DNA of 64,000 nt from Raoultibacter sp. (lineage in GTDB: Bacteria > Actinomycetota > Coriobacteriia > Coriobacteriales > Eggerthellaceae): the NCBI GenBank assembly GCA_036651575.1, contig JAVVXN010000003.1:9766-73765 (forward strand), in the 5' to 3' direction. The position numbers and the translations under genes were made by a program. This document shows, in pieces, positions 35,127 to 50,325 of the stretch (its first letter is position 1; each line of letters begins with the position of its first letter). The notes beneath the pieces were generated by a model, which was given only the letters and a program-made list of their open reading frames with translations, ran no database searches and was not told the origin of the DNA.

Positions 35127-35270
35127 GCCCTCTTGCTGTCGATGGTCTTTGAGCGGGCAGCGATTGCCGGTGTCTGGCCCGCTCGATTTCATTGCTGCAA
35201 GAGGTTATCTATACGTTTTTTGCGATAGGGCACGATGGTGTGTCTGTCGCAACAAGGCTCAAAGGAAGTC

Positions 35271-36335: not shown

Positions 36336-36414
36336 GTATTCTCGGGCAGTTGATGCCGGTGAGATGGATTGTTTTGGCAAAATGTCCGGAGTTTCCCGTT
36401 TGAATGGTGTGTAT

Positions 36415-37254
36415 ATGGTTGAGCAAACTGAGTTAAGAAAATTACAATTGGTGGAATTTGATCTCATGAAGCGCTTTGCTGAAATTTGCGAAGCGCAAGG
36501 TCTTCGTTATTATCTGCTTGGCGGTACCTTGTTGGGTGCTGTTCGTCATGGGGGGTTTATCCCCTGGGATGATGACGTCGATCTGTGTATGCCACGAGAA
36601 GATTACGAACAATTTCTTGCAGGTGCTTCTGAGGCAATGGGAGACGACGGAATACGTATCGTCAGCATCTACAGCGACGATACGTATCGTCAGGGTATGG
36701 CCAAGATGACGACGAGCAAGATGCAGATTATCAATCGTTCCGCCAACGAAGAGCGCGTAGAAGATGCCTGGATTGACATCATTCCTTTGGACGGTTTTCC
36801 TACCAAGACCCTCGCGGTTCTCTGTCATAAAGCGCGTCTTCTGTTTTGGAAGATCATGGATGCCACAGCGGAATTCGACTATGTTGTCGATACGAAAAGA
36901 AAACGGGGCGTGTTGGGATCGGTTGCTTTAAGGGTACTTGAGTTTCTCTGCCGATTCATTCGCCCGTTTGGATCCGACTATCACCGGGTGTTTATGCACA
37001 CGGAAAAGGCGCTGAAGCGATATCCCTATGCCGAAAGCTCCTCGGCGATCAATCTGTATGCAGCACGCGGTTTTAAGGAAATATTCCCGGTCGAAATGCT
37101 CGGGGAGGGGCGTTTGATCGCCTTTGAGGGACGCGAGTTCGTTGCTCCTGTCGATTACGAAGCGGTTCTCGAAACGATCTACGGAGCAGATTACCTGACG
37201 CCTCCTCCCGAAAACGATCGCAACTGGCATAACTCTGAAGTGCTTCCTACCTAA
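36415..37254 (+). CDS. licD: LicD family phosphotransferase (copy 1)
   Basis: '[33 protein letters not shown]'. The start is uncertain (36364, 36382 or 36415). Confidence 0.85.
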
Positions 37255-37345: not shown

Positions 37346-38056
37346 ATGATATTCGGCGCAATTTTGGCTGGTGGTGTAGGTTCTCGCATGAATATAGATA
37401 GTATGCCGAAACAGTTTCTTCCTTTGGGAAGTAAGCCGATTTTCCTGCATACGCTCGAGAAGTTTCTTTTGTGCAGTGAGTTTGATGCGATCTATATTGG
37501 CGTTCATAAGGATTGGGTCGATTTTGTAAAGGATGCGCTGCTAGACTGCACCCCTTCAAAGATTCCCGTTCATATTGCCTGCGGGGGAGATGATCGCAAC
37601 GAGACCATCATGCGGGTTATCGCGGACATCGAACGTGATTACGGAGTGCGCGATGACGATTTTATCGTTACTCACGATTCCGTTCGTCCCTTCGTGAAGC
37701 TTTCGATCATCAGGGAAAATATCGCTGCTGCGTCACGCTACGATGCGTGCGATACCGTTATCCCTGCAACGGATACCATCGTGGAATCAAGTGACGGCGA
37801 TACGATCGAGGCCATTCCTTTGCGCAATACCATGTATCAGGGGCAAACGCCGCAAAGCTTTAGGATTTCGGTTTTGAAGAATATGTATAAAGATCTCGAG
37901 GTTGAACAGCGTTGTCTTTTGACGGATGCGTGCAAGATTTTGGTCATGAAAGGTCAGCCGGTTCATTTGGTTCAAGGCGATGTGACAAACATCAAGTTAA
38001 CGACGGTGATGGACTACAAGGTCGCCCAGGCAATGCTGGAAAGCGGAGTCGAGTAA
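37346..38056 (+). CDS. tarI: ribitol-5-phosphate cytidylyltransferase (IspD/TarI family)
   Basis: 'AILAGGVGSRM', 'PKQFLPLGSKPI' and 'VTHDSVRPF'. It is paired with a TarJ-like reductase. Confidence 0.8.
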   Translation: MIFGAILAGGVGSRMNIDSMPKQFLPLGSKPIFLHTLEKFLLCSEFDAIYIGVHKDWVDFVKDALLDCTPSKIPVHIACGGDDRNETIMRVIADIERDYGVRDDDFIVTHDSVRPFVKLSIIRENIAAASRYDACDTVIPATDTIVESSDGDTIEAIPLRNTMYQGQTPQSFRISVLKNMYKDLEVEQRCLLTDACKILVMKGQPVHLVQGDVTNIKLTTVMDYKVAQAMLESGVE

Positions 38057-38059: not shown

Positions 38060-39073
38060 ATGATCAATAACGTGTATCAGTTGGTTTCACCAAAAACCAT
38101 CGTCGTTAAATTCGAAGACATGATCACTGAAGGTAAAGTGCTGATTCGTCCTCGATATATGGCGCTCTGTCATGCCGATCAACGATATTTTCAGGGAAGG
38201 CGCGACCCTCGGGTGATGCGCCAGAAACTTCCCATGGCACTGATCCATGAATGCATGGGAGAAGTCGTCTCCGATGCTTCCGGCACGTTTTCGCTTGGCG
38301 AAAACGTGGTGATGATTCCCAATGTTGCCGGCCGCGCTGACGAAGGCCTCTATGAAAATTATTCGGAGGGATCGGGCTTTCTGTCCAGCGGGCGAGATGG
38401 CTTCATGCGTGAACTGGTAAACCTCTGTTCTGACCGGGTTGTTTCTTGTACGGGAATCGACCCCCGGGTTGCTGCGATCACTGAATTTGTGAGCGTGACA
38501 GCCCATGCGGCCAGTCGTTTTGAGGCCGCAGCTCATCCGAGAAAAGAGCGCATAGCGATCATCGGTGATGGGTCGTTGGCGTATGTCATGGCCTGTATGC
38601 TCTCCGCCCTGTATCCGTTGAGCGCCTTGATCGTTGTCGGTCGCAATCAGGAAAAACTCAACCTGTTTTCCTTTGTCTCGGAACGCTATCTCACCGATGC
38701 GCTGCCCGATGATTTACATTTTGATCATGCTTTCGAGTGTGCCGGTGGGGAGGGATCGATGGCGGCGATCGATACGGTTATTTCCCGCATCAATCCACAG
38801 GGTGTGCTCATGTTGCTTGGGGTCAGCGAACAATCTGTCCCTATTTTTACCCGTAACGTACTCGAAAAAGGCATGACTTTGATTGGCTGTTCGCGTTCGG
38901 GCCGAAAAGATTTTGAGACAGCACTTTCTGTTATGAGGAAATCTGACATCCAGCAGCGGTTGAAACAGATCATTTTCGTTGACGCGCCCGTTCGCGATGT
39001 TAAAGATATCAAACGCGCATTCGCAACCGATCTGCAGACGCCTTTTAAGACGGTCTTTGGGTGGGATATGTAA
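38060..39073 (+). CDS. tarJ: ribulose-5-phosphate reductase (MDR/zinc-ADH family, TarJ-like)
   Basis: 'IRPRYMALCHADQRYFQG' and 'IIGDGSLAY' Rossmann motif, immediately after tarI. Confidence 0.75.
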   Translation: MINNVYQLVSPKTIVVKFEDMITEGKVLIRPRYMALCHADQRYFQGRRDPRVMRQKLPMALIHECMGEVVSDASGTFSLGENVVMIPNVAGRADEGLYENYSEGSGFLSSGRDGFMRELVNLCSDRVVSCTGIDPRVAAITEFVSVTAHAASRFEAAAHPRKERIAIIGDGSLAYVMACMLSALYPLSALIVVGRNQEKLNLFSFVSERYLTDALPDDLHFDHAFECAGGEGSMAAIDTVISRINPQGVLMLLGVSEQSVPIFTRNVLEKGMTLIGCSRSGRKDFETALSVMRKSDIQQRLKQIIFVDAPVRDVKDIKRAFATDLQTPFKTVFGWDM

Positions 39074-40788
39074 TGGCGAAAGTCGCGACTTCGCCCTTGG
39101 ATCTTTCCGTTCACTCCCTTCTGGGTGTTGTTTTCGGCGTATCTTTCCCTGGTTCTATCGTGCTTTTTGCAACGGGTATGTGCTTCCAGGATTTTACGGT
39201 TGCTTTGGTGGGGGTGCTGGCTCTTTGGGCATCCAATATGCTCTACGCGTGTCTTGATGTGAAGAATCGGTTGCTGTTGCTTTTTTGCCATATGGGTATA
39301 GCTTTGTTTTTGCTATCTCGTCCCTTCGTGGCTCTTTTTGACCCCCGTCGCGGATGGCTTCTTTCGAGCGTTGAGACGACGAATTTTGCCCTTTGGGCAA
39401 TTTTTCTTGCGCTCTTTTTTCTGTGTGCAGGAACTGCCGTGTACGAATTGATGAGTAAGGGCAACGCGCGGTGGTATCGGCAAAAAAAGGGGCTTTTCAA
39501 GAAAAAAATTCAGCCATCGCCTTCCATAAACCCTCTTATAAAGGTGCAAAAGCTTTCGAAAAGCGAGCGGATAGCGTGCATTCGCACGGCTGCATTGGTC
39601 TGCTTTTTGGTGTGCCTTGTCGGTTCGTTGATCTTGGGTTATCAGAAGCTTTCCTATATGCAGGGCTTGCGCTACGAAGAGTATTACCTCATCAATGTTG
39701 ACGAGCACTCGTCGTGGATCATCACGACTTTGAGCGTGATGACGCCCTACCTGCTCTGTGCCTATCTCGCAACACTTCCCAAGCGTCGACCCACGATGAT
39801 CTGTCTCGTCTTCTATATTATTACGACGATTCCGATGCTGATCATCGGCTCTCGGAATGATTTTGTGCTCGCTGTTTTGTTCTCGCTGCTCTATTTTGTG
39901 CTTCGCAATGTTATCGATGACGAGAAGTGGATTGGACGAAAAGAAGCTATTGTTATCTTGGTGGGCATCCCTATCGGAGTTTTCTTTATGGGTCTTTTGA
40001 CCTACGTCAGAGCCGGGGGAGGAACGACTCCCGATGGGTTTATTGCGCAGATAGTTGACGCTTTCTATAAGCAGGGAGTGACCTTTACTGTCTTGGGGCG
40101 CGGCTACGATGTCAATCCTCAAATTCAAGATCTTGGTTTTAAATTTTTCACTCTCGGATCGCTTATTTCGAATATAACGCAGGGATTTATTGGTCAAACG
40201 TTTCTTGGCTTCACTGATTTGGGTTCGATAAACAGTGCCGAATTGGCCTTGCACGGCAATGCTTACGCGCATACGATGTCCTTTTTTGCTCATTCCAATT
40301 ATCTGGGAGGGGAGGGATACGGTTCCTCGTTTGTCCTGGAAGCCTATGCTGATTTTGGATATGCCGGCATTGCGGTGATCAGCTTTTTGTTGGGTCTTTG
40401 TTTTGCGGGGCTTTCGCGGGCAATCGGGAAAACTTGGTTTATGGGAATGGTAGCCCTCATGTCTCTTTTCGGAGCCTTTCACATGGCGCGCGGTTCCGCA
40501 ATGGAATGGATCGAGTTCATTTGGAGCACACGGTTTTGGTTTGCGATGGCTTTTTTGGCGGTCGTCTTTGTGTGCTTCGTTCTTCTGAGAGGTTATACGA
40601 CAAAAACAGCTCCTTCGGTAAAGATGAGCATCGCGACTTTACCGAGTTTATCTGGGTCAACCCGTTCTTCAATGCTTGATTGCATATCGGTGGCTGGGTT
40701 GAACGAGAATGCTTTGGAGTGTTGTAATAAATATGGTATGCCTGTGGTTGGGTGTCAACAGCCCAAGCGCAAGCGGAAACGAAATTGA
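39073..40788 (+). CDS. wzy: Wzy-type polysaccharide polymerase
   Basis: 571 aa, more than 10 TM helices, with a large loop late in the protein. ATG 39073 overlaps the tarJ stop (TAATG). There are no soluble-enzyme motifs. Confidence 0.65.
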   Translation: MAKVATSPLDLSVHSLLGVVFGVSFPGSIVLFATGMCFQDFTVALVGVLALWASNMLYACLDVKNRLLLLFCHMGIALFLLSRPFVALFDPRRGWLLSSVETTNFALWAIFLALFFLCAGTAVYELMSKGNARWYRQKKGLFKKKIQPSPSINPLIKVQKLSKSERIACIRTAALVCFLVCLVGSLILGYQKLSYMQGLRYEEYYLINVDEHSSWIITTLSVMTPYLLCAYLATLPKRRPTMICLVFYIITTIPMLIIGSRNDFVLAVLFSLLYFVLRNVIDDEKWIGRKEAIVILVGIPIGVFFMGLLTYVRAGGGTTPDGFIAQIVDAFYKQGVTFTVLGRGYDVNPQIQDLGFKFFTLGSLISNITQGFIGQTFLGFTDLGSINSAELALHGNAYAHTMSFFAHSNYLGGEGYGSSFVLEAYADFGYAGIAVISFLLGLCFAGLSRAIGKTWFMGMVALMSLFGAFHMARGSAMEWIEFIWSTRFWFAMAFLAVVFVCFVLLRGYTTKTAPSVKMSIATLPSLSGSTRSSMLDCISVAGLNENALECCNKYGMPVVGCQQPKRKRKRN

Positions 40789-40797: not shown

Positions 40798-41874
40798 ATG
40801 TTTGATTTTGTAGCAATATTCGAAAGCATTAAACGTCATTGGATGTGGGTTCTTCTCGTTACGGCGCTGTGCGTTTGTACGGGTGCGGCTTTGTCGTTGG
40901 TAAAGGATGGCTCCATTGAGACCGAGCCTCAATACACGGCAGAGGCAACGCTGTATTTTAATGCCTATGCCTCCGATGCCGTGGAGGATTTCAACTATCG
41001 CGTTGACGATAATCTGCTTGCAACCGACGTGCGTCGTGCGGTAATCAGTAAAGAAGTTGCTGGTGAAGTACGTAATAAGCTTGGTGAAGAAGTGAAGATT
41101 TCCTCGCCGTTCTGGATCAATGAAAAGACAAACGGGAATTTTGCGACGCGTTTTATCTTTGTTGATGCAACGGCAAACAATGCTGATTTGGCCGTAGAGG
41201 CCGCAAACCTTGCTGCAGAGAAAACGGTACAAGTGGTAAGGGATACTCTGCCGGTAACGAAGGTCGAGATTACGAGCCCTGCGTCGTTGAAGGTCACGGG
41301 TTTGAATAAGGCTGCCGATTTTGGAACAGAAAAGATTGTCACCAGCAGTGTCGATGCGCCCGTAACCGCTGGTTCGGGAGTGAGTTTGAAAAATATCTTG
41401 ATATATGGATTCGCTGGGCTGTTTGTGTCGGTTCTTGCGTTTGTCTTGTACGATATCATTTCGCGAAAAATTCGTTCTCCGCATGATATCGAACGACTTC
41501 TCGATGTTCCGGTAATTGCGGTGTGTTCGGGAGTCGACGATGCTGATCTCGTCGGGGAAGATATTCGCGTTTTGTTGCGTAACAATGAGCTCGATACGAT
41601 GATCGTGGTAGGGTTTGCTTCGCAGGATGAGCCTGAACAATGGGCGCTTCGCCTTAAGTCTTGTATGGGGGACATGGTTGTTGGTGGCGTTGTGGCACCT
41701 CTAGCCGGTTCGGTTGCCCGCATTGCGGAAGCTTCGAGTGTGGTGCTTTCCGTGCGACAGGGTGCTGCGACCGGTTCTGAAATTCGTCGAGCGATTGAGA
41801 AGCTCAAGATTGCAGGAACACCTATCTTGGGTGCGGTGTTCGTTGCGAAACAAAAGCGTTCGAAGAAAGGATAG
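40798..41874 (+). CDS. Wzz/CpsC-like chain-length regulator fused to a short degenerate BY-kinase-like domain
   Basis: TM1 'WMWVLLVTALCVCTGAALSLV', a ~170-aa external loop, TM2 'ILIYGFAGLFVSVLAFVLYDII', then 'PHDIERLLDVPVIAV'. A P-loop-like fold follows with no GxxxxGK(S/T) ('MIVVGFASQDEPEQW'). Confidence 0.65.
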   Translation: MFDFVAIFESIKRHWMWVLLVTALCVCTGAALSLVKDGSIETEPQYTAEATLYFNAYASDAVEDFNYRVDDNLLATDVRRAVISKEVAGEVRNKLGEEVKISSPFWINEKTNGNFATRFIFVDATANNADLAVEAANLAAEKTVQVVRDTLPVTKVEITSPASLKVTGLNKAADFGTEKIVTSSVDAPVTAGSGVSLKNILIYGFAGLFVSVLAFVLYDIISRKIRSPHDIERLLDVPVIAVCSGVDDADLVGEDIRVLLRNNELDTMIVVGFASQDEPEQWALRLKSCMGDMVVGGVVAPLAGSVARIAEASSVVLSVRQGAATGSEIRRAIEKLKIAGTPILGAVFVAKQKRSKKG

Positions 41875-41902: not shown

Positions 41903-42727
41903 ATGGATTCCTTAGATAAAAAGCGAGAATACTTGACCCTGCAACAGCTTCAGTCTGTTGCGCTTGAGTTGCTCCTTGATTTTGACGCTTTCTGTAAGGG
42001 TCATGGGGTTTCCTATGCCTTGTGCGGGGGCTCTATGTTGGGAGCTGCTCGGCATCAGGGTTTTATTCCTTGGGATGACGACATTGATGTGATGCTGCTT
42101 CGCTCCGAGTACGACAAACTTCTTTCGCTGGCACCCGAGGCATCTCTTGACGGTAACCATGCGCTCGTTTCCGTTCGTGATAAAACCTTTGCGCGTGATT
42201 ATGCGCGCTATATTCGTAAGGATTTTGGGAAAGAAGAAGACGAAACGACAGAGGAAGATTGTCCCTGGATTGGTGTCGATATATTTCCGATAGATTTCAT
42301 ATCGGATAGTGATGAGCTGTTTGTGCGGCAATTGCGCGATCGACGTTTTTGGCACGAACTGGTGGTGACGTGCTCTTCTCCTTTCAATGCGGGAAGTACG
42401 TTTGTGAAGAAATGGGTGCGAAACATCATTCGTCCTTTTGCCTTTGCTTACGGTCGTTTTCGTGCGGCGGAAAAAAGTGAGGCGATCTGCAAGCGATTTA
42501 ACGATTCTCCGGGTCGTGATATCGCTATCGTGTGCGGAATGTACGGCACGAAAGAGCGCTGGTCGTCTTCGGGATATCAGCCATTGATCGAGGTGCCCTT
42601 CGAGGGGCACCTACTTCCCGCCCCACATGATTTCGACGCGTATCTTTCGGCAATCTATGGCGACTATATGCAGCTCCCTCCTGAAAACAAAAGGAAGCCA
42701 TCGCATATCCGAGCGTGGAAGCTATGA
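41903..42727 (+). CDS. licD: LicD family phosphotransferase (copy 2)
   Basis: '[33 protein letters not shown]'. Confidence 0.85.
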   Translation: MDSLDKKREYLTLQQLQSVALELLLDFDAFCKGHGVSYALCGGSMLGAARHQGFIPWDDDIDVMLLRSEYDKLLSLAPEASLDGNHALVSVRDKTFARDYARYIRKDFGKEEDETTEEDCPWIGVDIFPIDFISDSDELFVRQLRDRRFWHELVVTCSSPFNAGSTFVKKWVRNIIRPFAFAYGRFRAAEKSEAICKRFNDSPGRDIAIVCGMYGTKERWSSSGYQPLIEVPFEGHLLPAPHDFDAYLSAIYGDYMQLPPENKRKPSHIRAWKL

Positions 42728-42754
42728 TGAAGCTTACTATCTAGGAGGCAGTTT

Positions 42755-43834
42755 ATGTTGAATTTTACTGTCGGTCCCGTTCAGATGCGCGAAGAAGTGC
42801 GTATGATGGCGGCCGATCAGATACCGTATTTTCGTACCCCTGAGTTTTCTCAAACCATGGTTGAAAACGAAGCCCTTTTTCTCAAATTTGCTTTTGCTCC
42901 CGCCGACTCGCGTGCTGTTTTTTTAACGGGATCGGGCACGGCGGGTATGGAAGCGAGCGTCATTAATACGTTGACTTCGGAAGATAAGGTGCTTGTCGTA
43001 AATGGCGGCAGCTTCGGGCAGCGTTTTGTGCGTCTGTGTGAAATTCATAAAATTCCCTGTTCGGTCATTGAGTTGGGTTTTGGCACGCCGCTTGTCGAAT
43101 CCGATTTGTCTGCCTATGAGGGCCAGGGCTATACGGCCTTTTTAGTCAACCTCGATGAAACATCTACGGGGGTGCTCTACGATCTTGCCTTGATTCATGA
43201 TTTTTGCCGCCGCAATGCTCTTTTCTTGATTGTTGATGCCATCAGCGCGTTTCTCGCTGATCCCATCGATATGGCCGCCTATGAAATCGACGTTATGATT
43301 GCCGGTTCGCAAAAGGCCTTAGCGGTTGCTCCCGGAGTTTCTGTGCTGGCCTTATCTCCTGTCGCACAGCAGCGTATTGCGGCTATCGATTCGGGGTGTC
43401 TCTACCTGGATTTAGAAAGCGCTCTTCACGATGGGGAACGCGGCCAAACACCCTTTACGCCGGCCGTCGGTATTTTGCAGCAAATCAATAGGCGGTTGCA
43501 GCAAATTGACCGATTGGGAGTCGCTGCCGAAATCGAGCGAGTGGCTTTGCAGGCGCGTGACTTCAGGGATCGCATTGCCGTTTTGCCGTTTGAGCTGTTC
43601 TCGAAAGCTCCCACCAACGCGGTTACCGCTCTTTACTCCAAAGACCGGCTTGCAAAAACAATATTTTCCGTTCTGAAGGATGAATATGGTATGTGGGTCT
43701 GTCCGAATGGCGGCGCGCTTGCCGAAACGGTTTTCCGTGTCGGTCATATTGGTGATTTGACTTCAGCGGACAATGAAACACTCGTTGCGGCCTTGCTCGA
43801 TATGCAAGATCGTGGTTTTTTGGAGGGTCGATAA
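42755..43834 (+). CDS. class V (AGXT/SPT-like) PLP-dependent aminotransferase-fold protein
   Basis: 'FTVGPVQM', 'FLTGSGTAGMEA', 'VDAISAF' and 'IAGSQKALAVAPG', the last carrying the S-x-K PLP-lysine motif. Confidence 0.8.
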   Translation: MLNFTVGPVQMREEVRMMAADQIPYFRTPEFSQTMVENEALFLKFAFAPADSRAVFLTGSGTAGMEASVINTLTSEDKVLVVNGGSFGQRFVRLCEIHKIPCSVIELGFGTPLVESDLSAYEGQGYTAFLVNLDETSTGVLYDLALIHDFCRRNALFLIVDAISAFLADPIDMAAYEIDVMIAGSQKALAVAPGVSVLALSPVAQQRIAAIDSGCLYLDLESALHDGERGQTPFTPAVGILQQINRRLQQIDRLGVAAEIERVALQARDFRDRIAVLPFELFSKAPTNAVTALYSKDRLAKTIFSVLKDEYGMWVCPNGGALAETVFRVGHIGDLTSADNETLVAALLDMQDRGFLEGR

Positions 43835-45220
43835 ATGCTTGGCGGAAAAAAAGTCGTCATTACCTACGGTACCTATGATTTGCTTCATTTTGGGCACATT
43901 GCGCTGCTTAAGCGCGCTAAAGCGCTTGGCGATTACCTCATTGTCGGAGTGACTTCCGACGCGTTTGATAAGACTCGCGGCAAGCTCAACGTGTCGCAGC
44001 CGCTCGCTGAGCGGTTGCGGGCCATTCAGGATACAGGAATTGTCGACAAGATCGTTGTCGAGGAGTATCAGGGTCAAAAGATTGCCGATATTAAAAAATA
44101 CGGTGTTGATGTTTTTACGGTTGGGTCCGACTGGGAGGGAAAATTCGATTATCTCAATAAGTATTGCGAAGTCGTCTATCTTGAACGAACCCGGGGTGTT
44201 TCAAGTACCGAGTTGCGTACGGATCGGATAAAACCTCTGGCGTTGGGCTGCGTGGGCTCCGATTACCTTGTGGAGCGATTTTTGCGCGAATCCCAGCATG
44301 TGGGAGGAGTCAGCGTCACTCACGGATTTTCACGGGGTTCAGACGAAGATTTTTGCGCACGCAATGGTCTCGTATCTGCCGCCTCTTTCTCGGAGTTGTG
44401 CGCCGTGGTTGATGCGGTCTATATTTCAGAACCGATTGATCGACGGTATGCGTGTATTGAGACGGCCCTTGAGGCGGGTTGTCATGTTTTGTGCGAGAGC
44501 CCTCTGTTTTTGAGCGAACAGGAAGGCCGAGATCTTTGCAATTTGGCTGCTCGCAATAACCTGGTGCTCATGGAAGCGGTCAAGACGCTCTACCTTCCCG
44601 CTTTTCAGCATCTTAAGCTTTTGCTCGAGAGCGGGGTTATCGGTGAAGTGAAAGATATCGATGCTTCGTTTAGCCATGTGTTTGAGGGGCTTGATAAAAG
44701 GGACCGCTATCAGGGGAGCTTTTATGACATGGCTTCCTATATCACGCTGCCTGCCATTGCGTTTCTGGGAAGTGAATACGTGCGTGCTGATTTCGCCTGC
44801 AGCTACGACGGTCAGTTTTGTACGTGGGCGAAGTGCGCGATGCTCTATGCGTCCGCATCGGCAACCTTGCGGGTTGGTAGGGGCGTTAAAACCGAAGGGG
44901 ATCTGGTTATCACCGGGACGGAAGGGTATGTATACGTTCCCGCTCCCTGGTGGAAAACGGAGTATTTCGAAGTGAGGATGGAAGATCTTCGCAACACGAA
45001 AAAGTACTTTTACGGTTACGCCGGTGAAGGACAACGCTATGAGTTGTTCGAATTTGTGCGTCTTATCAACTCTCAACCCGAAGAGCGTTTGCCCATGCAG
45101 AAAGAGGAAGAGGTTTTGGCGGTCGCTCGCCTGGTCGAACAATTCGACGCGGGTGATGTGGCAGTTCTTGCTGCGGGAGAATATCATTTCGGTGGCGGGG
45201 AAAGCGTTGTCGATCGATGA
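43835..45220 (+). CDS. fusion of a TagD-like cytidylyltransferase (N-terminal) and a Gfo/Idh/MocA-like oxidoreductase (C-terminal)
   Basis: Residues 1-~130 carry 'ITYGTYDLLHFGH', 'GSDWEGKFDYL' and 'RTRGVSSTELR', a close match to B. subtilis TagD. Residues ~135-461 carry 'LGCVGSDY..' and 'GCHVLCESPL', the Gfo/Idh/MocA pattern. It is a single ORF. Confidence 0.85.
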   Translation: MLGGKKVVITYGTYDLLHFGHIALLKRAKALGDYLIVGVTSDAFDKTRGKLNVSQPLAERLRAIQDTGIVDKIVVEEYQGQKIADIKKYGVDVFTVGSDWEGKFDYLNKYCEVVYLERTRGVSSTELRTDRIKPLALGCVGSDYLVERFLRESQHVGGVSVTHGFSRGSDEDFCARNGLVSAASFSELCAVVDAVYISEPIDRRYACIETALEAGCHVLCESPLFLSEQEGRDLCNLAARNNLVLMEAVKTLYLPAFQHLKLLLESGVIGEVKDIDASFSHVFEGLDKRDRYQGSFYDMASYITLPAIAFLGSEYVRADFACSYDGQFCTWAKCAMLYASASATLRVGRGVKTEGDLVITGTEGYVYVPAPWWKTEYFEVRMEDLRNTKKYFYGYAGEGQRYELFEFVRLINSQPEERLPMQKEEEVLAVARLVEQFDAGDVAVLAAGEYHFGGGESVVDR

Positions 45221-46194
45221 ATCCCCTCGTGTCTATTGTTGTGCCTGTCTACAATGTTGAAACGTATCTGGATGCCTGTGTTTCCTCTCTGGTTGAGCAG
45301 GACCTGAAAGATATTGAAATACTGCTGGTAGACGATGGTTCCACCGATGCCAGTTCTCGTCTGTGCGACGCTTGGGCGCAGCGTGACGATCGTATCAAAG
45401 TTATCCATAAGGAAAACGGCGGGCTCAGCGACGCCCGCAACGTTGGTGTTACTGCCGCCTGTGCGCCCTATGTCGGTTTTGTCGACAGCGATGATCGTGT
45501 CACCCCGACGATGTATCAAGTGCTCTACGAAAATCTCAAAAGAGAACAGGCCGATATTTCTATATGCGGTGTTTTTAGCTGCTATGCAGATAAAATAATC
45601 GAACCCGAGAGCTGCGATTATTTTACGGTGGATAACGTTGAAGCCATGCGGGAAATTCTTGGCGGAAAAAGACTTCGAGTGTGGGTGCCGGTAAAGCTTT
45701 ATCCGACAAACGTGATGAGGGAAACCCCTTTTCCGGTGGGAAGAACCTACGAAGACGCCTTTCGCGTCGTCGATATCTTTTCCAAGGTCAAAAATGTTGT
45801 TGTCGATCTGCGGCCGCAATACTACTACTGGCATCATGAGGGAACGATTTCGTCAGCTGCCTTCAACGAGAAGACACTTGATATTATCGATGCGTACGAA
45901 CATTGCCATGAAGTGGTTATGCGGGATTATCCCGAGTTGGAAACCGAAGCTCGGTTCCGTTGCTTTTGGTCACGCTTCGAAGTTTTGGATAAAATTCTCG
46001 TCTCCGAACAACGGGGAAAAACCGAAGCAGAACGCCATATCGTTACCTATTTGCGTAAGCACTGGTATTCCATTTTGAAAAATCCCTATTTTGGTGTTGC
46101 GCGAAAACTGGCGTTTTGCGCCCTGCTAATCAATAGGCGCCTGTATGGCGTCCTCGCGCGTTTTCAGGCGAATCGATATGCTTCCAATGCGTAA
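45217..46194 (+). CDS. GT2 glycosyltransferase
   Basis: 'VSIVVPVYNVETYL', 'LLVDDGSTDAS' and 'VDSDD'. ATG overlaps the upstream stop (ATGA). Confidence 0.85.
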   Translation: MNPLVSIVVPVYNVETYLDACVSSLVEQDLKDIEILLVDDGSTDASSRLCDAWAQRDDRIKVIHKENGGLSDARNVGVTAACAPYVGFVDSDDRVTPTMYQVLYENLKREQADISICGVFSCYADKIIEPESCDYFTVDNVEAMREILGGKRLRVWVPVKLYPTNVMRETPFPVGRTYEDAFRVVDIFSKVKNVVVDLRPQYYYWHHEGTISSAAFNEKTLDIIDAYEHCHEVVMRDYPELETEARFRCFWSRFEVLDKILVSEQRGKTEAERHIVTYLRKHWYSILKNPYFGVARKLAFCALLINRRLYGVLARFQANRYASNA

Positions 46195-46210
46195 AAGAGA
46201 GGAGTGTGAC

Positions 46211-47308
46211 GTGAAAAAAAGCATAGCGTTTCTTGTTCCCTCTTTGGGCGACATGGGGGGATCGGTGCGCGTCGCCACGCAGCTTGCCAACGCGTTGTGT
46301 GAGCGCTATGAAACGATGATCATCAGTTGCGCCAAATTTGATCAAGCGGCTTTTTATCTCAAGGAAAACATCGAGACGTTTTCTCTCGACGTGCAGGGAA
46401 AAAGAGTGCGTGAAAAAGTTCAAGAAGCAAAAGAGCCGCTCACCGCGCTGCTCGTCCATAAAAAACCTGATATTTTATTCGGTATTGGAACCTATGAAAC
46501 GCTTATGGCAATTCGGCCAGCCCGATCGACGAAAACAAAACTGGTGTTTTGCGATCACGGTGCTCTCATCAACCAGTGGGACGATAAACAGATGCGCGCC
46601 ATCCGCTTACTCGATGCGCTTTTCTCGTCAAAAACGGTTACGCTGACGCATCGAAGTCTCGAAGATTATCGGTCGCGCCTGCACGTTTCCCGCAAGAAGC
46701 TGATTTGTATCCCCAATTGGGTTTCCCATGAGTTGCTTGACGCCCGTCGTCCCTATCACGTTGCTGCAAAGAAGCTTTTATGGGCCGGCAGGCTCGATCG
46801 GGAAAAGGGTGTTGATCATCTGGTTGAAATTGCGGCGCGCGTCTTGCCGCGCCATCCCGATTGGACGTGGGATGTTTTTGGGGAAGTCGTTGCGGGAAAT
46901 GAATTTGATATTGCTGAAGAAATTGCTCGAAGGGGGATTGCGGATCAAGTGCGGCTCATGGGCAAGGTCGATAATCTCTACCAGCTTTATTCCGAGTACG
47001 CCGTTGTTACTCTGACATCGTATCGCGAAGGTCTTCCTTTGGTGCTGCTTGAGGGAAAGGCCTGCGCTCTGCCCCTGATTTCATTTGACGTCAATACCGG
47101 CCCTTCAGATATCATCGAAGACGGTGTCGACGGATTTTTGGTGCCGTGCTACGACCGGGATGTTTACGCCAAAAAGCTTGACGCTCTCATGTCTGATGAG
47201 AGCCTTCGCGTTCGTATGTCGCAGGCTTCGCAAAAGGGTATTGCTCGCTTTTGCGAGGATGCTATCTACGTGCAATGGGAAAATCTTATTGAGGGGCTGG
47301 TGTCGTAA
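46211..47308 (+). CDS. GT4 (GT-B) glycosyltransferase
   Basis: 'TSYREGLPLVLLEGKACALPLISFDVNTGPSDII' (EX7E region). GTG 46211 follows the RBS 'GAGAGGAG'. Confidence 0.85.
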   Translation: MKKSIAFLVPSLGDMGGSVRVATQLANALCERYETMIISCAKFDQAAFYLKENIETFSLDVQGKRVREKVQEAKEPLTALLVHKKPDILFGIGTYETLMAIRPARSTKTKLVFCDHGALINQWDDKQMRAIRLLDALFSSKTVTLTHRSLEDYRSRLHVSRKKLICIPNWVSHELLDARRPYHVAAKKLLWAGRLDREKGVDHLVEIAARVLPRHPDWTWDVFGEVVAGNEFDIAEEIARRGIADQVRLMGKVDNLYQLYSEYAVVTLTSYREGLPLVLLEGKACALPLISFDVNTGPSDIIEDGVDGFLVPCYDRDVYAKKLDALMSDESLRVRMSQASQKGIARFCEDAIYVQWENLIEGLVS

Positions 47309-47356: not shown

Positions 47357-48886
47357 ATGGCGCGCTTTGAAAGTTCTATGAAAAACCTGGCGGTTGCCTG
47401 GGGAGGTCAGCTCGTGTCCGTTTTGCTGGCTTTTGTGGCACGCGGTGTTTTCGCACAACAGCTCAGTATGGAATATATGGGACTGGAGAATTTGTTTTCC
47501 AACGTATTGACCATTCTTTCTTTGGCCGATCTTGGGGTGGGCAGTGCGGTTGTTTTTTCGTTATATGAACCGTTGGCTAAAAACGATACGGAAAAAGTTA
47601 AATCTTTAATGCGCTTCTTTAAGCGCGCCTATATTACCATCGGTATTGTCATCGCTGCCATCGGTTTTGGGCTTACCCCGTTTATCGATCTTCTGATCGC
47701 GGATGCTCCCAACATTCCCAACCTCGGTGTTTACTTTCTTTGCTTTGTGCTCAATACGGCTGTTTCCTACTTCTTCTCCTATAAGGGCTCTTTGATATAC
47801 GCCGATCAGAAAAATTACATCGTCTCGCTGTTTCAATATTCTTTTCAAATCATTATGTGTATCGCGCAGATCGCGGTGCTGTTTCTCACTCACAGCTATC
47901 TTCTTTTCTTGCTGTGCATGATAGCGTCGACGGTGCTCCAAAATGTCGGTATTGCGCACAAGGCCAATATGATGTTTCCTTACTTGAAGGATAAAAACGT
48001 AGAGCCACTCGACAAGGGGACTTTGTCGCTGATCGTCAAAAATACGTTTGCGTTGGTTTTGCACAAGATCGCCGGCATCGCCAGCGTGCCTGCAAGCAGT
48101 TTGATTATCAGTAAATTTGCGGGCATCAACGCAATTGCTATCTACGGCAACTACATGCTGATCATTAATTCTTTGTCGCGGATACTCGATAAAACGTTTG
48201 ACGCGGTAACTGCCAGTGTGGGGAACTTGGGTGCGCAGGAGTCGGGCGAGCGGCAATACGAGGTATTTAAGATAAGTTTTTTTATCAATGCTTTTTTGTA
48301 TACCGTCGTTTGTTCGGTTTTGTTTTGCTGCTTCAATCCCCTGGTTTTTCTGTGGCTCGGGCAGGATTACCTGTTTCCAACGCTCACGGTTTGTCTTTTG
48401 ACGATATGGCTCTACGTTAAGGGTATGCGTTCTGCAGAACAATCATTCACCTCGGCATATGGGCTCTACTGGTTTTCTTGGTACAAAGCCGTTGTTGAAA
48501 CTATCAGCTTGCTGGGGCTCTCGCTTGCCCTTGTCCAGGTTGCGGGTATTGACGGCGTTATTCTTTCCGGCGTCGTGTCTTTGCTGCTGATCGCTACGAC
48601 TATGGAAGTGTGGGTACTCTACAAGCATGGATTTAAAAGAAGTCCGAAAGACTATTTTATAAAATTGGGCATCTATTCGCTGTTGACTCTTATCCTGACT
48701 TCTTTATCGTATTGTGCGTGCATGCTCATTCCCGGTTCAGGGGTGATTTCATTGCTGCTGAAGGGGGTTGTTTCTCTGACGATAGCAATGGGGGGATTTT
48801 GTCTTGTATTCAGGAAAAGTCACGAGTTTTCCGAGTTTGTAATCTTGCTGCATCGGGCATGTTCCCTGGTTAAGCGAAAGAAATAG
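47357..48886 (+). CDS. wzx: Wzx-type (MOP superfamily) oligosaccharide flippase
   Basis: 509 aa with about 12-14 TM helices. The N-terminal sequence 'NLAVAWGGQLVSVLLAFVARGVF' is typical of polysaccharide flippases. Confidence 0.75.
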   Translation: MARFESSMKNLAVAWGGQLVSVLLAFVARGVFAQQLSMEYMGLENLFSNVLTILSLADLGVGSAVVFSLYEPLAKNDTEKVKSLMRFFKRAYITIGIVIAAIGFGLTPFIDLLIADAPNIPNLGVYFLCFVLNTAVSYFFSYKGSLIYADQKNYIVSLFQYSFQIIMCIAQIAVLFLTHSYLLFLLCMIASTVLQNVGIAHKANMMFPYLKDKNVEPLDKGTLSLIVKNTFALVLHKIAGIASVPASSLIISKFAGINAIAIYGNYMLIINSLSRILDKTFDAVTASVGNLGAQESGERQYEVFKISFFINAFLYTVVCSVLFCCFNPLVFLWLGQDYLFPTLTVCLLTIWLYVKGMRSAEQSFTSAYGLYWFSWYKAVVETISLLGLSLALVQVAGIDGVILSGVVSLLLIATTMEVWVLYKHGFKRSPKDYFIKLGIYSLLTLILTSLSYCACMLIPGSGVISLLLKGVVSLTIAMGGFCLVFRKSHEFSEFVILLHRACSLVKRKK

Positions 48887-49283
48887 GACAGGAAGCTTTT
48901 GAGTGCGCGGGGATGTTTTGGTTGTAGAGAAATTCAAAATGGTGAAGATAACGTCACCGATCACGAAAAATAAAAGAAGCGACGTGTTGGTGGTTTCTTG
49001 ATCGGGTCCCGGTGGGATTGTGGCGTGAAGGGATCTTCTATTCTTGGGTTAGAATATTATGCGCTCGTGAATCTTGTTTTCTTTTCAGGAATAAAATATG
49101 GTTCATGAGGTATGGTAGAATGCAGATATTCGTCTTTTATCAGAGTGTAATACGGCTGTCGATCGTTCACGTCTGCGATAGTCTGAGAAGTGATAGAGCG
49201 AAAGGGTCTTTGAGAAAGTTTTATTTTCTTGAGGAAAAAACTGCTTGTTTTATAGGGAGGAACAAACCGAAGGTGATGCTTCC

Positions 49284-50306
49284 GTGACGGACGTTATTGA
49301 CAAAATACAGAACGATGCGAAGGGCAGTGAGGAAAATCCTCTCATTTCCGTTGTTGTTCCTGTTTATAACGTCGAAAAGTATCTCGATAGGTGCGTGCAC
49401 TCCATTGTTTCCCAAACATTTAAATCCCTTGAAATTATTCTCGTCGACGATGGCGCACGCGACGAAAGCGGCATCATGTGCGATACCTGGAAGACAAAAG
49501 ATGATCGTATCCGGGTCATTCATAAAGAAAATGGCGGTTTGAGTGACGCTCGCAACGCGGGAGTTGCAATAGCTCGCGCACCGTATGTTGGATTCGTCGA
49601 TAGTGATGACTATATCGCGCCGACGATGTATGAGGTGCTCTACGAAAGCCTCGTAAAAGAAAACGCCGACATTGCTCTTTGCGGGGTGCTTGACCAGTAC
49701 GTCGATAGGTCAGAGGCACCCAGTGCGATTGCTTATTCGGTCATGACACCCGAAGAGGTGTTGTCAGACATTTTTCTCAACAAAACCTTGATGGTGGGGG
49801 TGCCTCCGCGCTTGTGCTCTCTGGAACTTATGAAAGAAGTTCCCTTTCCGGTTGGAAAAATTCACGAAGATGCTTTTACGGTCGTTGACGTTTTTTCGCG
49901 GGTGCATAAGATCGTCGTCGACACACACCCGCTGTATGTGTATTGTCATAATGAAGGAACCATCACCTCCGCTTCATACAATCCGGCATCGATGGACAAT
50001 ATTGAAGCATGGGAATACTGTCGCCGTGAAGTGGAGAAGAAATATCCCGCTTTGATCCCGGATGTCATGTTCCGGTGTTACTGGGCGCATTTCGATGTCC
50101 TTGACGGCATGGTGCTCGCGGGCAAAGACGTTGACCGCGAAAACGAGGAAATGATCATCGATTATTTCCAGCAACACTACCAAGATATCGTTCATCATCC
50201 CGATATAAGCTGGTTGAGAAAAAGCGCTCTCAGGGCTTTGATGATCCATCGCTCTCTGTATCGTCTACTCGTTATTCTTCAGCGTAAACGAATACATTTA
50301 AACTGA
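49284..50306 (+). CDS. GT2 glycosyltransferase, paralogue of 45217-46194
   Basis: 'ISVVVPVYNVEKYL', 'ILVDDGARDES', 'IRVIHKENGGLSDARN' and 'VDSDD' are collinear with the first GT2. The start could be GTG 49284 or TTG 49245. Confidence 0.8.
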   Translation: MTDVIDKIQNDAKGSEENPLISVVVPVYNVEKYLDRCVHSIVSQTFKSLEIILVDDGARDESGIMCDTWKTKDDRIRVIHKENGGLSDARNAGVAIARAPYVGFVDSDDYIAPTMYEVLYESLVKENADIALCGVLDQYVDRSEAPSAIAYSVMTPEEVLSDIFLNKTLMVGVPPRLCSLELMKEVPFPVGKIHEDAFTVVDVFSRVHKIVVDTHPLYVYCHNEGTITSASYNPASMDNIEAWEYCRREVEKKYPALIPDVMFRCYWAHFDVLDGMVLAGKDVDRENEEMIIDYFQQHYQDIVHHPDISWLRKSALRALMIHRSLYRLLVILQRKRIHLN

Positions 50307-50325
50307 TCGATTGGGGCGAACCGTC

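Follow-up and report, generated by a model that had tools for sequence, protein, structure and literature searches.

The window, a stretch of 64 kb from an Eggerthellaceae bacterium, holds a Wzx/Wzy polysaccharide locus on its + strand. Within this locus lies a cassette of three genes: licD2, an aminotransferase gene (AT), and a gene that fuses a cytidylyltransferase domain (CT) to a Gfo/Idh/MocA-fold domain (GFO). The cassette and its context are as follows.

36364..37254, + strand: licD1, LicD paired with the ribitol-phosphate module (context; Pfam LicD, E 2.5e-41)
37346..38056, + strand: tarI-like D-ribitol-5-phosphate cytidylyltransferase (context; NCBIfam NF001183, 320.9 bits against a cut-off of 166)
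38060..39073, + strand: tarJ-like zinc alcohol-dehydrogenase-family reductase (context; Pfam ADH_N and Glu_dehyd_C)
39061..40788, + strand: Wzy repeat-unit polymerase (context; Pfam O-ag_pol_Wzy, E 9e-81)
40798..41874, + strand: Wzz-like chain-length determinant (context; Pfam Wzz, E 1e-6; TIGR01006)
41903..42727, + strand: licD2, LicD-family phosphotransferase, predicted installer of the phospho-head group (Pfam LicD, E 6e-37)
42755..43834, + strand: AT, class-V (AGXT/PhnW-clade) PLP-dependent aminotransferase, 359 aa (Pfam Aminotran_5, E 6e-13)
43835..44227, + strand: CT domain of the fused protein, aa 1-131, TagD/TarD-like cytidylyltransferase (alignment with 2b7l and 1coz, motifs)
44228..45220, + strand: GFO domain of the fused protein, aa 132-461, probably redox-inactive (fold and motif loss)
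45217..46194, + strand: GT2 glycosyltransferase (context; Pfam Glycos_transf_2, E 3e-34)
46145..47308, + strand: GT4 glycosyltransferase (context; Pfam Glycos_transf_1, E 4e-31)
47357..48886, + strand: Wzx-like flippase (context; NCBIfam WZX_like, weak match, E 2e-5)

licD2 is the second LicD gene of the locus (31% identity to LicD1) and ends 27 nt upstream of the AT gene. The AT stop codon TAA (43832-43834) runs directly into ATG 43835 of the fused gene, GGAGGG lies 8 nt upstream, and the start of the GT2 gene overlaps the stop of the fused gene by 4 nt. Both the second LicD gene immediately upstream and the abutting stop and start had been described in an earlier, sequence-only reading, and both are confirmed. 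The three cassette genes are real genes, not chance ORFs. The licD1-tarI-tarJ ribitol-phosphate module adjoins the cassette, 4 kb upstream in the same locus. Its tarJ-like gene has 72-74% identity to the tarI-adjacent gene in two related loci, Slackia piriformis L001 and Eggerthellaceae L003. Profile searches revealed no kinase-like ORF in the locus.

The fused gene is intact and common

The fused ORF (43835-45220, + strand, 461 aa) contains 'VITYGTYDLLHFGH' and 'ERTRGVSSTELR'. Pfam places CTP_transf_like at aa 9-129 (E 1e-17), GFO_IDH_MocA at aa 140-247 (E 3e-11) and GFO_IDH_MocA_C3 at aa 257-366. Together with the TarD/TagD alignment, these matches bear out the description of the protein as a fusion of a TagD-type and a Gfo/Idh/MocA half. 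Near 44230, at the domain boundary, the ORF has neither a stop nor a frame change. The identical 461-aa protein is found on 10 contigs, among which three NCBI MAG assemblies and three separate Logan run assemblies are represented. At the six places shown for it, the flanking genes are kept as far as the contig reaches. This recurrence in independent assemblies rules out an assembly artefact as the source of the fusion. Among the matches listed, the 120 closest homologues are 49-68% identical, and all but one are full-length, two-domain proteins. The exception is a 374-aa partial, and a few others lack one GFO Pfam match.

The AT/CT-GFO pair is found in more than 570 species genomes from about eleven phyla, cultured isolates included. 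Its bearers are hundreds of gut, rumen and mouth bacteria. The fusion, once taken to be unusual, is the normal, dominant form.

An AT-anchored genome scan yielded at least 578 confirmed matches, and the best 80 loci were analysed. The linkage of AT and the fused gene is conserved: the two lie at most 200 nt apart in 67 of these 80 loci, from about ten phyla (fused gene downstream in 58, upstream in 9). The only families that recur around the cassette in the best 80 loci are AT, the fused CT-GFO and LicD, and at least 40 of these loci have a LicD gene close by. Orthologues of licD2 (59-61% identity) sit directly upstream of AT in L001 and L003. A TagF-like CDP-alcohol transferase also adjoins the cassette in 15 Prevotella/Segatella loci, in some of which no other CDP-alcohol transferase lies within reach. 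licD2, AT and CT-GFO form a horizontally widespread module. Gene families and linkage support the earlier proposal that such a module would serve a second, non-ribitol CDP-activated head group, installed by LicD.

The cytidylyltransferase domain

Residues 6-130 of the fused protein align with TarD/TagD over the full length (2b7l, E 6e-35; 1coz, E 3e-33). They carry the HxGH and RTxGxSST motifs and are about 52% identical to genuine TagD/TarD. Unlike TagD/TarD, however, CT is fused to a 330-aa domain, scores 112.6 on TIGR01518 (below the cut-off of 165.4) and has other residues than TagD at about 15 invariant positions. This signature is common to all fused proteins. In Fibrobacter loci a further, stand-alone TagD lies next to the fused gene, which suggests that the role of the fused CT is not just to provide CDP-glycerol.

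The aminotransferase

AT contains the motif GSQKAL. HMMER alignments put its lysine opposite that of the corresponding motif in 3f0h, Sulfolobus AGXT and PhnW, which confirms the PLP site noted earlier. K187 (in SQKAL), D161, R328, H331, R27 and R229 are invariant in 15 diverse AT homologues, and AT identity across phyla is 58-67%. PDB 3f0h aligns end to end with AT (E 2e-124) and is a clear orthologue, but its molecule name is generic ('Aminotransferase'), so it gives the fold and no function. NCBI also names AT generically.

The scores of AT lie below the curated cut-offs for BhcA (148 against 650) and PhnW-AepZ (143 against 361), and far below that for SerC. A housekeeping AGXT-type enzyme was considered and rejected: AT does not cluster with the AGXT type, and the low BhcA and PhnW scores speak against this objection as well.

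If AT were a passenger or a housekeeping glyoxylate/serine aminotransferase, then the cassette might make plain CDP-glycerol, and the substituent would be glycerol phosphate. The TagD-like CT and the generic name of AT would agree with this. We consider it highly improbable given the abutting stop and start, the adjacency kept in 67 of 80 loci, the scores of AT, the CT positions that differ from TagD, and the separate TagD in Fibrobacter.

Variant cassettes

In some loci the cassette has no GFO domain. Fusobacterium vincentii combines LicD and AT (51% identical) with a LicC/PntC-like transferase. In the PDB this transferase is most similar to 1jyk (E 1e-14) and 6pd1 (E 6e-9), two enzymes that handle amine-bearing phosph(on)ates. 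The Lentisphaerota loci L040 and L065 contain AT, a stand-alone CT and LicD.

6pd1 is the PntC-AEPT fusion of Treponema denticola. That system follows the logic proposed for the cassette: a class-V transaminase produces an amine-bearing phosph(on)ate, which a LicD-type enzyme attaches after activation by a cytidylyltransferase. 6pd1 also matches AT itself (E 2e-18), and PhnW is among the PDB matches of AT. A phosphonate pathway would make AT a 2-aminoethylphosphonate transaminase, with CT producing CMP-AEP and LicD2 installing AEP. We give this next to no chance. In contrast to PntC-AEPT, the cassette has neither PEP mutase nor decarboxylase, which argues that its substrate would be a phosphate ester and not a phosphonate. 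The PEP-mutase-type motif EDKx5NS is absent from the whole 64-kb window and occurs in 1 of 160 related loci. Furthermore, the transferase of the cassette is TagD-like, not LicC-like, and AT, which has about 28% identity to genuine PhnW and falls far below the PhnW model cut-offs, forms a family of its own.

At four metagenome loci a histidinol-phosphate-aminotransferase-like (HisC-like) gene (TIGR01141, 240 bits) adjoins degenerate fused genes. It is a second PLP family, unrelated to AT, at the same cassette position. The histidinol-phosphate-aminotransferase family interconverts keto-phosphates and amino-alcohol phosphates.

In AGXT and PhnW, the arginine of the FR[IV]G motif binds the carboxylate or phosphonate of the substrate, and the invariant R328 of AT lines up with it. 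AT also belongs to the AGXT/PhnW/SerC-related class-V clade, whose members act on 2-oxo acids and aldehydes. Thus another carbonyl phosphate might be the substrate: 3-phosphohydroxypyruvate, leading to phosphoserine and a CDP-serine-type donor, or glyceraldehyde-3-phosphate, leading to a 3-amino-1,2-propanediol-phosphate donor. The head group would then be an amine, but not serinol. This is rather unlikely, since the TagD-like CT and the HisC-like alternative partner point to a substrate shaped like glycerol phosphate, with a ketone next to CH2-O-P, and we know of no CDP-serine donor.

The GFO domain keeps its fold and loses its motifs

The GFO fold is confirmed by an AF2 model (pLDDT 92), which has Foldseek TM scores of 0.82-0.87 (normalised to target) against 4had, KijD10 and 3e9m. 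The canonical motifs are lost. In the window, E221-S222-P223 stands in place of EKP, and the fingerprint reads G141-S-D143 instead of GxG, with Asp at the second glycine. Among the matches listed, all 120 nearest homologues lack the EKP Lys, and residue 143 is D, N or G. Sequence change is much faster in the GFO half than in its neighbours: its median identity is 37%, against 73% for CT across phyla and 60% for AT in the locus comparison.

We compared 148 fused ORFs by partner gene and scored the EKP Lys, GxGxx[AGS] and [DE]xxx[YH] (SDR, short-chain dehydrogenase):

Class-V AT partner, n = 102: EKP Lys 0, GxGxx[AGS] 15, [DE]xxx[YH] 13
HisC-like PLP enzyme partner, n = 4: EKP Lys 0, GxGxx[AGS] 0, [DE]xxx[YH] 0
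SDR partner, n = 22: EKP Lys 1, GxGxx[AGS] 22, [DE]xxx[YH] 10
No partner, n = 21: EKP Lys 8, GxGxx[AGS] 17, [DE]xxx[YH] 15

The NAD(P) glycine fingerprint is missing in 87 of the 102 AT-linked copies, and the EKP Lys differs between AT-linked and partnerless copies (Fisher p = 3e-7). Motif-intact GFO copies are either partnerless or have an SDR partner instead of AT. Since motifs are lost where AT is the partner, the strictly conserved PLP enzyme probably handles the carbonyl. AT and SDR never occur together among the 148 fused ORFs. Such mutual exclusion fits alternative handling of one carbonyl, by reduction or by amination.

Judging from these motifs, the GFO half most likely remains as a relic from an ancestral CT-reductase enzyme and has lost its redox activity; the 'oxidoreductase' of the sequence-only reading is not supported as a working half. 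The domain nevertheless does something, as the strong conservation of its C-terminal motif GTxGYxYVPAPWWKTxYFEVRxE indicates; a structural role or contacts with partners may be why it has been kept. A non-canonical redox role may also have some room: D298 and Y302 are kept in the window protein and most of its closest relatives, and the GxG fingerprint is kept in its nearest relatives, L001 and L003.

A Gtp1-like reduction step appears unlikely, because the catalytic Lys is missing in every AT-linked copy and the NAD(P) fingerprint usually is, too. This weighs on CDP-2-glycerol, one of the two donors suggested earlier. As in pneumococcal Gtp1-3/WchX, but with gtp2 and gtp1 fused, GFO would reduce dihydroxyacetone, the AT-fold protein would be the glycerol-2-phosphotransferase, CT would activate what it makes and LicD2 would install glycerol-2-phosphate. 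The two systems are alike in that a three-function pathway plus a phosphotransferase puts a C3 phospho-head group onto a Wzy-type polysaccharide; the cassette likewise has four functions and lies beside a LicD-type transferase, and Gtp1-3 may belong to the same three families. The two systems differ in gene order, and none of the published labels (gtp1 'glycerol-2-phosphate dehydrogenase', gtp2 'putative nucleotidyl transferase', gtp3 'putative phosphotransferase') is an aminotransferase. Moreover, the invariant PLP site would have no role in phosphoryl transfer, the locus has no kinase-like ORF, and no Streptococcus locus is among the best 80 of at least 578 AT-anchored matches. We regard CDP-2-glycerol as very unlikely; we found no support for it, and of the two donors the amino-polyol of the serinol-phosphate type is favoured.

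An active GFO could also work on a nucleotide. CT would then make CDP-glycerol from glycerol-3-phosphate, GFO would oxidise C2 to give CDP-dihydroxyacetone, and AT would aminate this to a CDP-serinol-type donor. That CT and GFO are joined in one protein suggests that their steps follow each other, the nearest structural neighbours of the GFO model are NDP-sugar enzymes such as KijD10 and GnnA, and the retained D298 and Y302 and the similarity of CT to genuine TagD/TarD fit as well. A comparable pair is WbpB/WbpE (WlbA/WlbC), a Gfo/Idh/MocA dehydrogenase and an aminotransferase that act on UDP-sugars. The cassette differs from it in the lost GFO motifs, including the Asp at the second glycine in the window, and its AT is class V, not DegT type. 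The GFO-free cassettes of Fusobacterium and Lentisphaerota also speak against this route, and AGXT/PhnW-type active sites usually accept small substrates. We consider it improbable.

A possible route to a CDP-serinol-type donor

We tentatively favour a cassette that transaminates dihydroxyacetone-phosphate (DHAP) and builds a CDP-serinol-type donor, from which LicD2 puts a phospho-amino-alcohol on the cell-wall polysaccharide, beside ribitol phosphate. Gene content, domain architecture, linkage, PLP-site conservation, GFO motif loss and the exclusive partner genes are observed, whereas we infer the substrate, the product and the order of steps. The PLP enzyme would transaminate the C2 carbonyl of the DHAP scaffold. 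The TagD-like domain would activate the phosphate with CTP, giving a CDP-serinol-type donor (CDP-2-amino-1,3-propanediol, about 476 Da). LicD2 would then move phospho-serinol onto a repeat-unit sugar hydroxyl, creating a zwitterionic substituent.

Amination could come either before or after cytidylylation. The invariant CT core is the same in AT-linked and SDR-linked proteins, with a between-group difference only at loop 54-58. From these alignments, a CT that accepts an amine in the AT-linked proteins but an alcohol in the SDR-linked ones would be awkward. The identical core fits better with CT acting first, on the keto-phosphate. N-acyltransferases, which could have pointed independently to an amine, are not enriched near the cassette.

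Serinol phosphate is an established capsule building block in Campylobacter jejuni, where Cj1437 carries out the chemical step proposed here, from DHAP to (S)-serinol phosphate. Known DHAP transaminases such as Cj1437 and RtxA are class I/II and not class V. Cj1437 is HisC-like, and its serinol, once dephosphorylated, is joined to glucuronate by an amide bond; CDP activation is not involved. AT, in contrast, is class V, and the Cj1437-like family appears only as the HisC-like partner in the four metagenome loci. A class-V enzyme, human PSAT1, does convert DHAP to serinol phosphate by transamination, although very slowly (PMC9283133).

In the literature we found no description of this cassette and no polymer structure for any host species. 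The TarI/TarJ (Bcs1) CDP-ribitol module resembles it in that a carbonyl-modifying enzyme and a cytidylyltransferase feed a LicD enzyme. In the cassette, however, a separate PLP enzyme most likely aminates the carbonyl, and the fused reductase-like domain lacks catalytic motifs. If the DHAP-serinol reading is true, the surface polysaccharide carries a second phosphodiester-linked, amine-bearing head group besides ribitol phosphate.

A second CDP-alcohol module in the polysaccharide locus

Two CDP-alcohol modules lie within the locus, which is of the Wzx/Wzy type and makes a cell-wall polysaccharide. One is the ribitol-phosphate module licD1-tarI-tarJ. The other, which we call the cassette, consists of licD2, a class-V aminotransferase gene (AT) and a fused gene (CT::GFO), whose product joins a TagD-like cytidylyltransferase domain (CT, aa 1-131) to a Gfo/Idh/MocA-fold domain (GFO, aa 132-461).

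Table. Genes of the locus and its upstream flank in the window.
26366-34925, upstream of the locus: YfhO membrane protein (-), two CWB2-domain hydrolases (amidase, glucosaminidase), DUF6020 protein (-)
35235-36335, +, GT2
36364-37254, +, licD1
37346-38056, +, tarI-like ribitol-5-P cytidylyltransferase (321 bits, cut-off 166)
38060-39073, +, tarJ-like reductase
39061-40788, +, wzy
40798-41874, +, wzz-like, 358 aa (Wzz match aa 2-94 only, chain-length model aa 185-243)
41903-42727, +, licD2, 274 aa (Pfam LicD, E 6e-37)
42755-43834, +, AT, class-V aminotransferase fold, 359 aa (Pfam Aminotran_5, PF00266, E 6e-13)
43835-45220, +, CT::GFO fused ORF, 461 aa (CTP_transf_like aa 9-129, GFO_IDH_MocA aa 140-247, GFO_IDH_MocA_C3 aa 257-366)
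45217-46194, +, GT2 (start overlaps the fused gene's stop by 4 nt)
46145-47308, +, GT4 (listed start overlaps the preceding GT2 by 50 nt)
47357-48886, +, wzx-like
49245-50306, +, GT2
50311-51456, +, GT4
51996-54626, +, polA

ORF listing, translation and Pfam confirm the three-gene arrangement described by the sequence-only reading, as well as the motifs it quoted from the fused ORF and AT. The stop codon of AT (TAA, 43832-43834) directly abuts the ATG of the fused gene (43835), with GGAGGG 8 nt upstream. At the CT/GFO boundary near 44230 the frame is continuous and free of stops. Exact matches of the protein in NCBI are annotated to MAGs of Raoultibacter sp., a genus of the Eggerthellaceae (Actinomycetota). 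The identical 461-aa protein is found on 10 contigs, of which three belong to NCBI assemblies and three to separately assembled Logan runs, and in the six contig places shown the flanking genes are retained as far as the contig reaches. That the fusion could be an assembly artefact is thus rejected, because the same protein recurs on 10 contigs, the boundary is clean and full-length homologues exist.

LicD1 and LicD2 share only 31% identity. The second, non-ribitol head group proposed earlier fits a locus with two such modules, and the cassette very probably supplies a second CDP-activated head group. LicD2 contains the LicD domain at full length (PF04991 profile positions 1-227 of 227); its best NCBIfam match is the Mycoplasma fermentans Mf1 model, far under the cut-off. 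M. fermentans GGPL-III contains a phospho-serinol unit.

Distribution and linkage of the cassette

A scan anchored on AT, with one genome per species, confirmed at least 578 loci, the best 80 of which were analysed. By record title these 80 belong to Actinomycetota, Bacillota, Bacteroidota (Prevotella, Segatella copri), Fibrobacterota, Verrucomicrobiota (Akkermansia), Lentisphaerota, Elusimicrobiota, Spirochaetota, 'Tenericutes' and a Saccharibacteria-type lineage. Fusobacteriota are added through Fusobacterium vincentii.

The fused gene lies at most 200 nt from AT in 67 of these 80 loci (58 downstream, 9 upstream). Clustering the neighbouring ORFs of the 80 loci yields only three recurrent families: AT, the fused gene, and LicD, which has 62 copies in 40 loci. 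The 120 closest homologues listed for the fused protein, among them proteins of Arabiibacter massiliensis, Eggerthellaceae and Lachnospiraceae, are 49-68% identical to it, and all but one are full length with the two-domain architecture; the exception is a 374-aa partial sequence, and a few others lack one GFO Pfam match. The fused arrangement, which had been taken to be unusual, is therefore the norm.

Fifteen Prevotella/Segatella loci contain a TagF-like CDP-alcohol transferase, and the cassette sits there among lipid-A and Kdo genes. In L083 (474-7070), L060 and other Segatella/Prevotella loci it lies amid lipid-A acyltransferase, Kdo-kinase-like, GT2 and TagF-like (Glyphos_transf) genes. 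The target in these bacteria is probably the LPS core rather than the capsule.

In the plasmid collection, cassette matches are confined to Ruminococcus albus pRUMAL01 and the F. vincentii replicon. On the former, a 421-kb mobilizable megaplasmid of R. albus 7 (locus L082, 8148-13918), the cassette is inside a Wzy-type locus with the gene order LicD, AT, fused gene, LicD, GNAT, LicD. GNAT-like ORFs are present in pRUMAL01 and in one further related locus, L078. When 150 small ORFs surrounding AT-type cassettes were assigned to Pfam, none of the 25 families listed was GNAT, and we dropped N-acyltransferase enrichment as independent evidence for an amine.

An intact aminotransferase PLP site and a cytidylyltransferase below the TagD cut-off

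The top PDB match of AT is 3f0h (E 2e-124), which aligns end to end and is named only 'Aminotransferase'. Sulfolobus AGXT and PhnW enzymes follow at about E 1e-24. AT shows the hallmarks of fold-type I, class V: the Aminotran_5 domain, the Schiff-base lysine K187 (GSQKAL), aligned to the same-motif lysine of 3f0h, AGXT and PhnW, and the pyridine-binding aspartate D161. Both residues are invariant, as are R328, H331, R27 and R229. No named NCBIfam equivalog includes AT: the scores are 148 against a cut-off of 650 for BhcA, 143 against 361 for PhnW, 31 against 444 for SerC and 95 against 600 for pyridoxamine-pyruvate transaminase. By these motifs and scores, AT is a distinct family in the AGXT/PhnW clade, strongly constrained and with an intact PLP site. 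One PDB entry has an odd name: chain A of 9os7 (555 aa) is called 'Methionine--tRNA ligase', and its residues 198-449 match AT (E 1e-20).

CT aligns over its full length to TarD/TagD at about 52% identity (2b7l residues 2-125) and carries both H18-F-G-H21 (HxGH) and R118-T-R-G-V-S-S-T125 (RTxGxSST). As a TagD equivalog (TIGR01518) it scores 112.6 bits, below the cut-off of 165.4, and it differs from TagD/TarD at about 15 invariant positions. This signature (D45, R48-G-K50, N52, T67-G68, A70, E77-Y78, G80, I83, S98, Y106, S124, R128) is common to every fused protein. Supplying plain CDP-glycerol is probably not the role of the fused CT.

A degenerate oxidoreductase half

The new point of our analysis is the degenerate oxidoreductase half of the fused protein. 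GFO matches PF01408 and PF22725 and has the two-domain Gfo fold, an N-terminal Rossmann domain followed by a C-terminal alpha/beta domain. Its AF2 model is confident (pLDDT 92.1, pTM 0.85) and in Foldseek resembles Gfo-family structures with target-normalised TM scores of 0.82-0.87 (4had, KijD10, 3e9m, 2ho5), the nearest being 4had, the NDP-sugar 3-ketoreductase KijD10 and 3e9m.

Active Gfo-family dehydrogenases (KijD10, AFR, IolG, GFOR) use the lysine of an EKP motif together with Asp and His/Tyr. In the window this motif reads E221-S222-P223, so that serine occupies the position of the catalytic lysine. The lysine is equally absent from all 120 nearest homologues listed. The dinucleotide-binding fingerprint GxGxx(G/A), which reads G141-S-D143-Y-L-V146, is not intact either. 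Judged from these features, the cassette falls outside PhnW, the TagD equivalog and the active Gfo dehydrogenases. The C-terminal motif of GFO (aa 361-383) is strongly conserved, and hence the domain retains some role.

The window protein and most of its closest relatives do keep D298 and Y302, the Asp/Glu-x3-Tyr/His pair. This speaks for a minority rival, a WbpB/WbpE-like route in which a Gfo enzyme and an aminotransferase act together; among AT-linked copies as a whole, the pair is missing from 89 of 102.

The degree of decay differs with the neighbouring gene. Anchoring a metagenome scan on the fused protein yielded 582 confirmed matches, of which 80 were kept; in 24 of the 55 kept loci having room on both sides, there is no AT within 6 kb of the fused gene. 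We pooled 148 fused ORFs, classed them by neighbouring gene and scored three GFO motifs.

Table. GFO motifs in fused ORFs by partner gene (n; EKP Lys; GxGxx[AGS]; [DE]xxx[YH]).
Class-V AT: 102; 0; 15; 13
Histidinol-phosphate-aminotransferase-like PLP enzyme: 4; 0; 0; 0
Short-chain dehydrogenase (SDR), start overlapping or abutting the fused gene's stop: 22; 1; 22; 10
No partner: 21; 8; 17; 15

In this pool, the EKP lysine is associated with partner-less fused genes (Fisher p = 3e-7), the nucleotide fingerprint is intact in every SDR-linked copy as opposed to 15 of 102 AT-linked ones, and AT and SDR never occur together beside one fused gene. The invariant CT core is identical in AT-linked and SDR-linked proteins; only loop 54-58 varies between the groups. 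Median identity to the window among AT-linked pairs is 60% for AT and 73% for CT, and only 37% for GFO.

In the simplest reading, the ancestral fused enzyme would have been a bifunctional reductase-cytidylyltransferase, analogous to TarIJ/Bcs1. In derived lineages an SDR would have taken over its redox function, and in the window's lineage transamination would have replaced the redox step, leaving GFO as a relic of the fold only. By its motifs, the partner-less EKP form is probably the self-sufficient, ancestral reductase-cytidylyltransferase. Examples with canonical EKP, GxGRIA and ExxxY lie in the related loci L090 (1070-2428), L091 (5998-7341), L093 (5998-7347), L095 (1584-2972), L105 (6010-7359) and L130 (2325-3671).

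The SDR-type cassette, seen in metagenomes, is paralogous (L092, 7329-8063; L099, 4360-5097; L101, 7338-8075; L103, 7335-8072; L134, 6035-6775). Its NAD fingerprint is intact, LicD/TagF-like transferases are usually nearby and a class-V AT never is. Its product may be a CDP-glycerol stereoisomer. In two other loci, L096 (4911-5975) and L156 (4924-5988), a histidinol-phosphate-aminotransferase-like gene (TIGR01141, 240 bits, under the cut-off) stands directly upstream of a degenerate fused gene, which looks like a non-orthologous replacement of the class-V AT.

Some variants dispense with GFO altogether. The F. vincentii replicon encodes LicD, an AT (51% identical) and a 245-aa transferase. Among solved structures this transferase is closest to LicC (1jyk, E 1e-14) and to the PntC-AEPT fusion (6pd1, E 6e-9), which are cytidylyltransferases acting on phosph(on)ates that bear an amine. 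Two Lentisphaerota loci have AT, a stand-alone 152-aa CT and LicD. Since such GFO-less variants carry an aminotransferase, a cytidylyltransferase and LicD, these three suffice. In Fibrobacter loci an extra stand-alone TagD adjoins the cassette.

In the Lachnospiraceae loci L012 (7956-13518) and L046 (2692-5774), two or three LicD genes come after AT. Those of L012 flank a flagellin-like ORF (11279-12094), and no cytidylyltransferase is nearby; this arrangement could serve the decoration of flagellin or surface proteins.

Proposed product

The cassette follows a logic like that of the transaminase-cytidylyltransferase-LicD route for aminoethylphosphonate (AEP), and works in a manner similar to TarIJ-LicD. 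A phosphonate product itself is rejected: the window lacks the PEP-mutase motif EDKx5NS in all six frames, and 159 of 160 related loci lack it too. The sole ORF with the motif (L041, 11748-12647, from an uncultured Bacilli MAG) sits a short way downstream of AT, the fused gene and LicD.

We propose that the partner enzymes, reductase or transaminase, are alternatives acting on one carbonyl. Given the glycerol-phosphate-like CT and the HisC-like alternative PLP partner, whose family interconverts keto-phosphates and amino-alcohol phosphates, the scaffold would be dihydroxyacetone phosphate (DHAP). Amination at its C2 would give serinol phosphate, cytidylylation would give a CDP-serinol-type donor, and LicD2 would use this donor to attach phospho-serinol to the repeat unit. 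The head group is rather likely to bear an amine. That it arises by this particular CDP-serinol-type route is a plausible but tentative assignment from gene content and motifs.

The sequence-only reading had left the choice between CDP-2-glycerol and an amino-polyol donor of the serinol-phosphate type. The latter alternative is favoured, and the analogy to the pneumococcal Gtp1-3/WchX pathway on which the former drew lacks support. Published labels weigh against this analogy, giving gtp1 as 'glycerol-2-phosphate dehydrogenase', gtp2 as 'nucleotidyl transferase', gtp3 as 'phosphotransferase' and wchX as 'glycerol phosphotransferase'. The same holds for the dead reductase motifs of GFO and the invariant PLP site of AT. 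The locus has no kinase- or phosphotransferase-family ORF that could serve as Gtp3. The best 80 of the at least 578 AT-anchored loci include no Streptococcus locus, and the high-membership clusters P0177 and P0122 are Prevotella-like and Eggerthellaceae-like, not streptococcal.

For a CDP-serinol-type donor, two orders of reaction come into question. The CT core shared by AT-linked and SDR-linked proteins and the KijD10-like fold favour cytidylylation first, via CDP-dihydroxyacetone, a logic like that of AbpA/AbpB for CDP-arabinitol. In Fusobacterium, the LicC/PntC-like partner points instead to transamination first. Transamination of DHAP to serinol phosphate by the class-V enzyme PSAT1 is possible, if very slow (PMC9283133), and C. 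jejuni is known to use serinol phosphate as a precursor of its capsule.

A wider reading is conceivable, if more doubtful: the cassette would make CDP-serinol, LicD/TagF-like enzymes would use it to install phospho-serinol, a zwitterionic substituent, and GFO would be a pseudoenzyme marking an evolutionary switch from reduction to transamination on one CDP-C3 scaffold. The targets would be the cell-wall polysaccharides, the capsules and the LPS cores in hundreds of anaerobes from gut, rumen and mouth, with Segatella copri, Prevotella, Fibrobacter, Ruminococcus, Akkermansia and Eggerthellaceae as carriers. To our knowledge, CDP-serinol is a nucleotide-activated amino-alcohol so far undescribed. 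Searching the literature for the cassette, and for CDP-serinol, phospho-serinol or glycerol-2-phosphate in connection with LicD, returned nothing relevant, and no biochemical or structural-chemistry data for any cassette member.

Significance

Small head groups linked by phosphodiesters affect the charge of a bacterial surface and its resistance to antimicrobial peptides, and they shape phage receptors and immune recognition. Examples already known are phosphocholine, phosphoethanolamine, glycerol phosphate, ribitol phosphate and aminoethylphosphonate. The two-gene biosynthetic core of the cassette is highly conserved across phyla (AT about 60%, CT about 73% identical). Horizontal spread has carried it into host-associated anaerobes from about eleven phyla, and in prominent Prevotella and Segatella of the gut it occupies LPS-core loci. 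We found no assigned product for it, despite the AT crystal structure 3f0h. If the product is an amino-alcohol phosphate, the core would bring gut-microbiota glycobiology a zwitterionic decoration and a CDP donor, both of them new, along with a clean example of a fused pseudo-dehydrogenase.

Minor observations in the window

A promoter and terminator scan of the locus gave the same counts as shuffled sequence. The C-terminal approximately 120 aa of the wzz-like protein have no family match and might be the remnant of a tyrosine-kinase module. In public gene calls the GT4 listed from 46145 has a later start and a product of 365 aa; its true start probably lies downstream. The CWB2 domains encoded upstream of the locus hint that the polymer made there anchors wall proteins.
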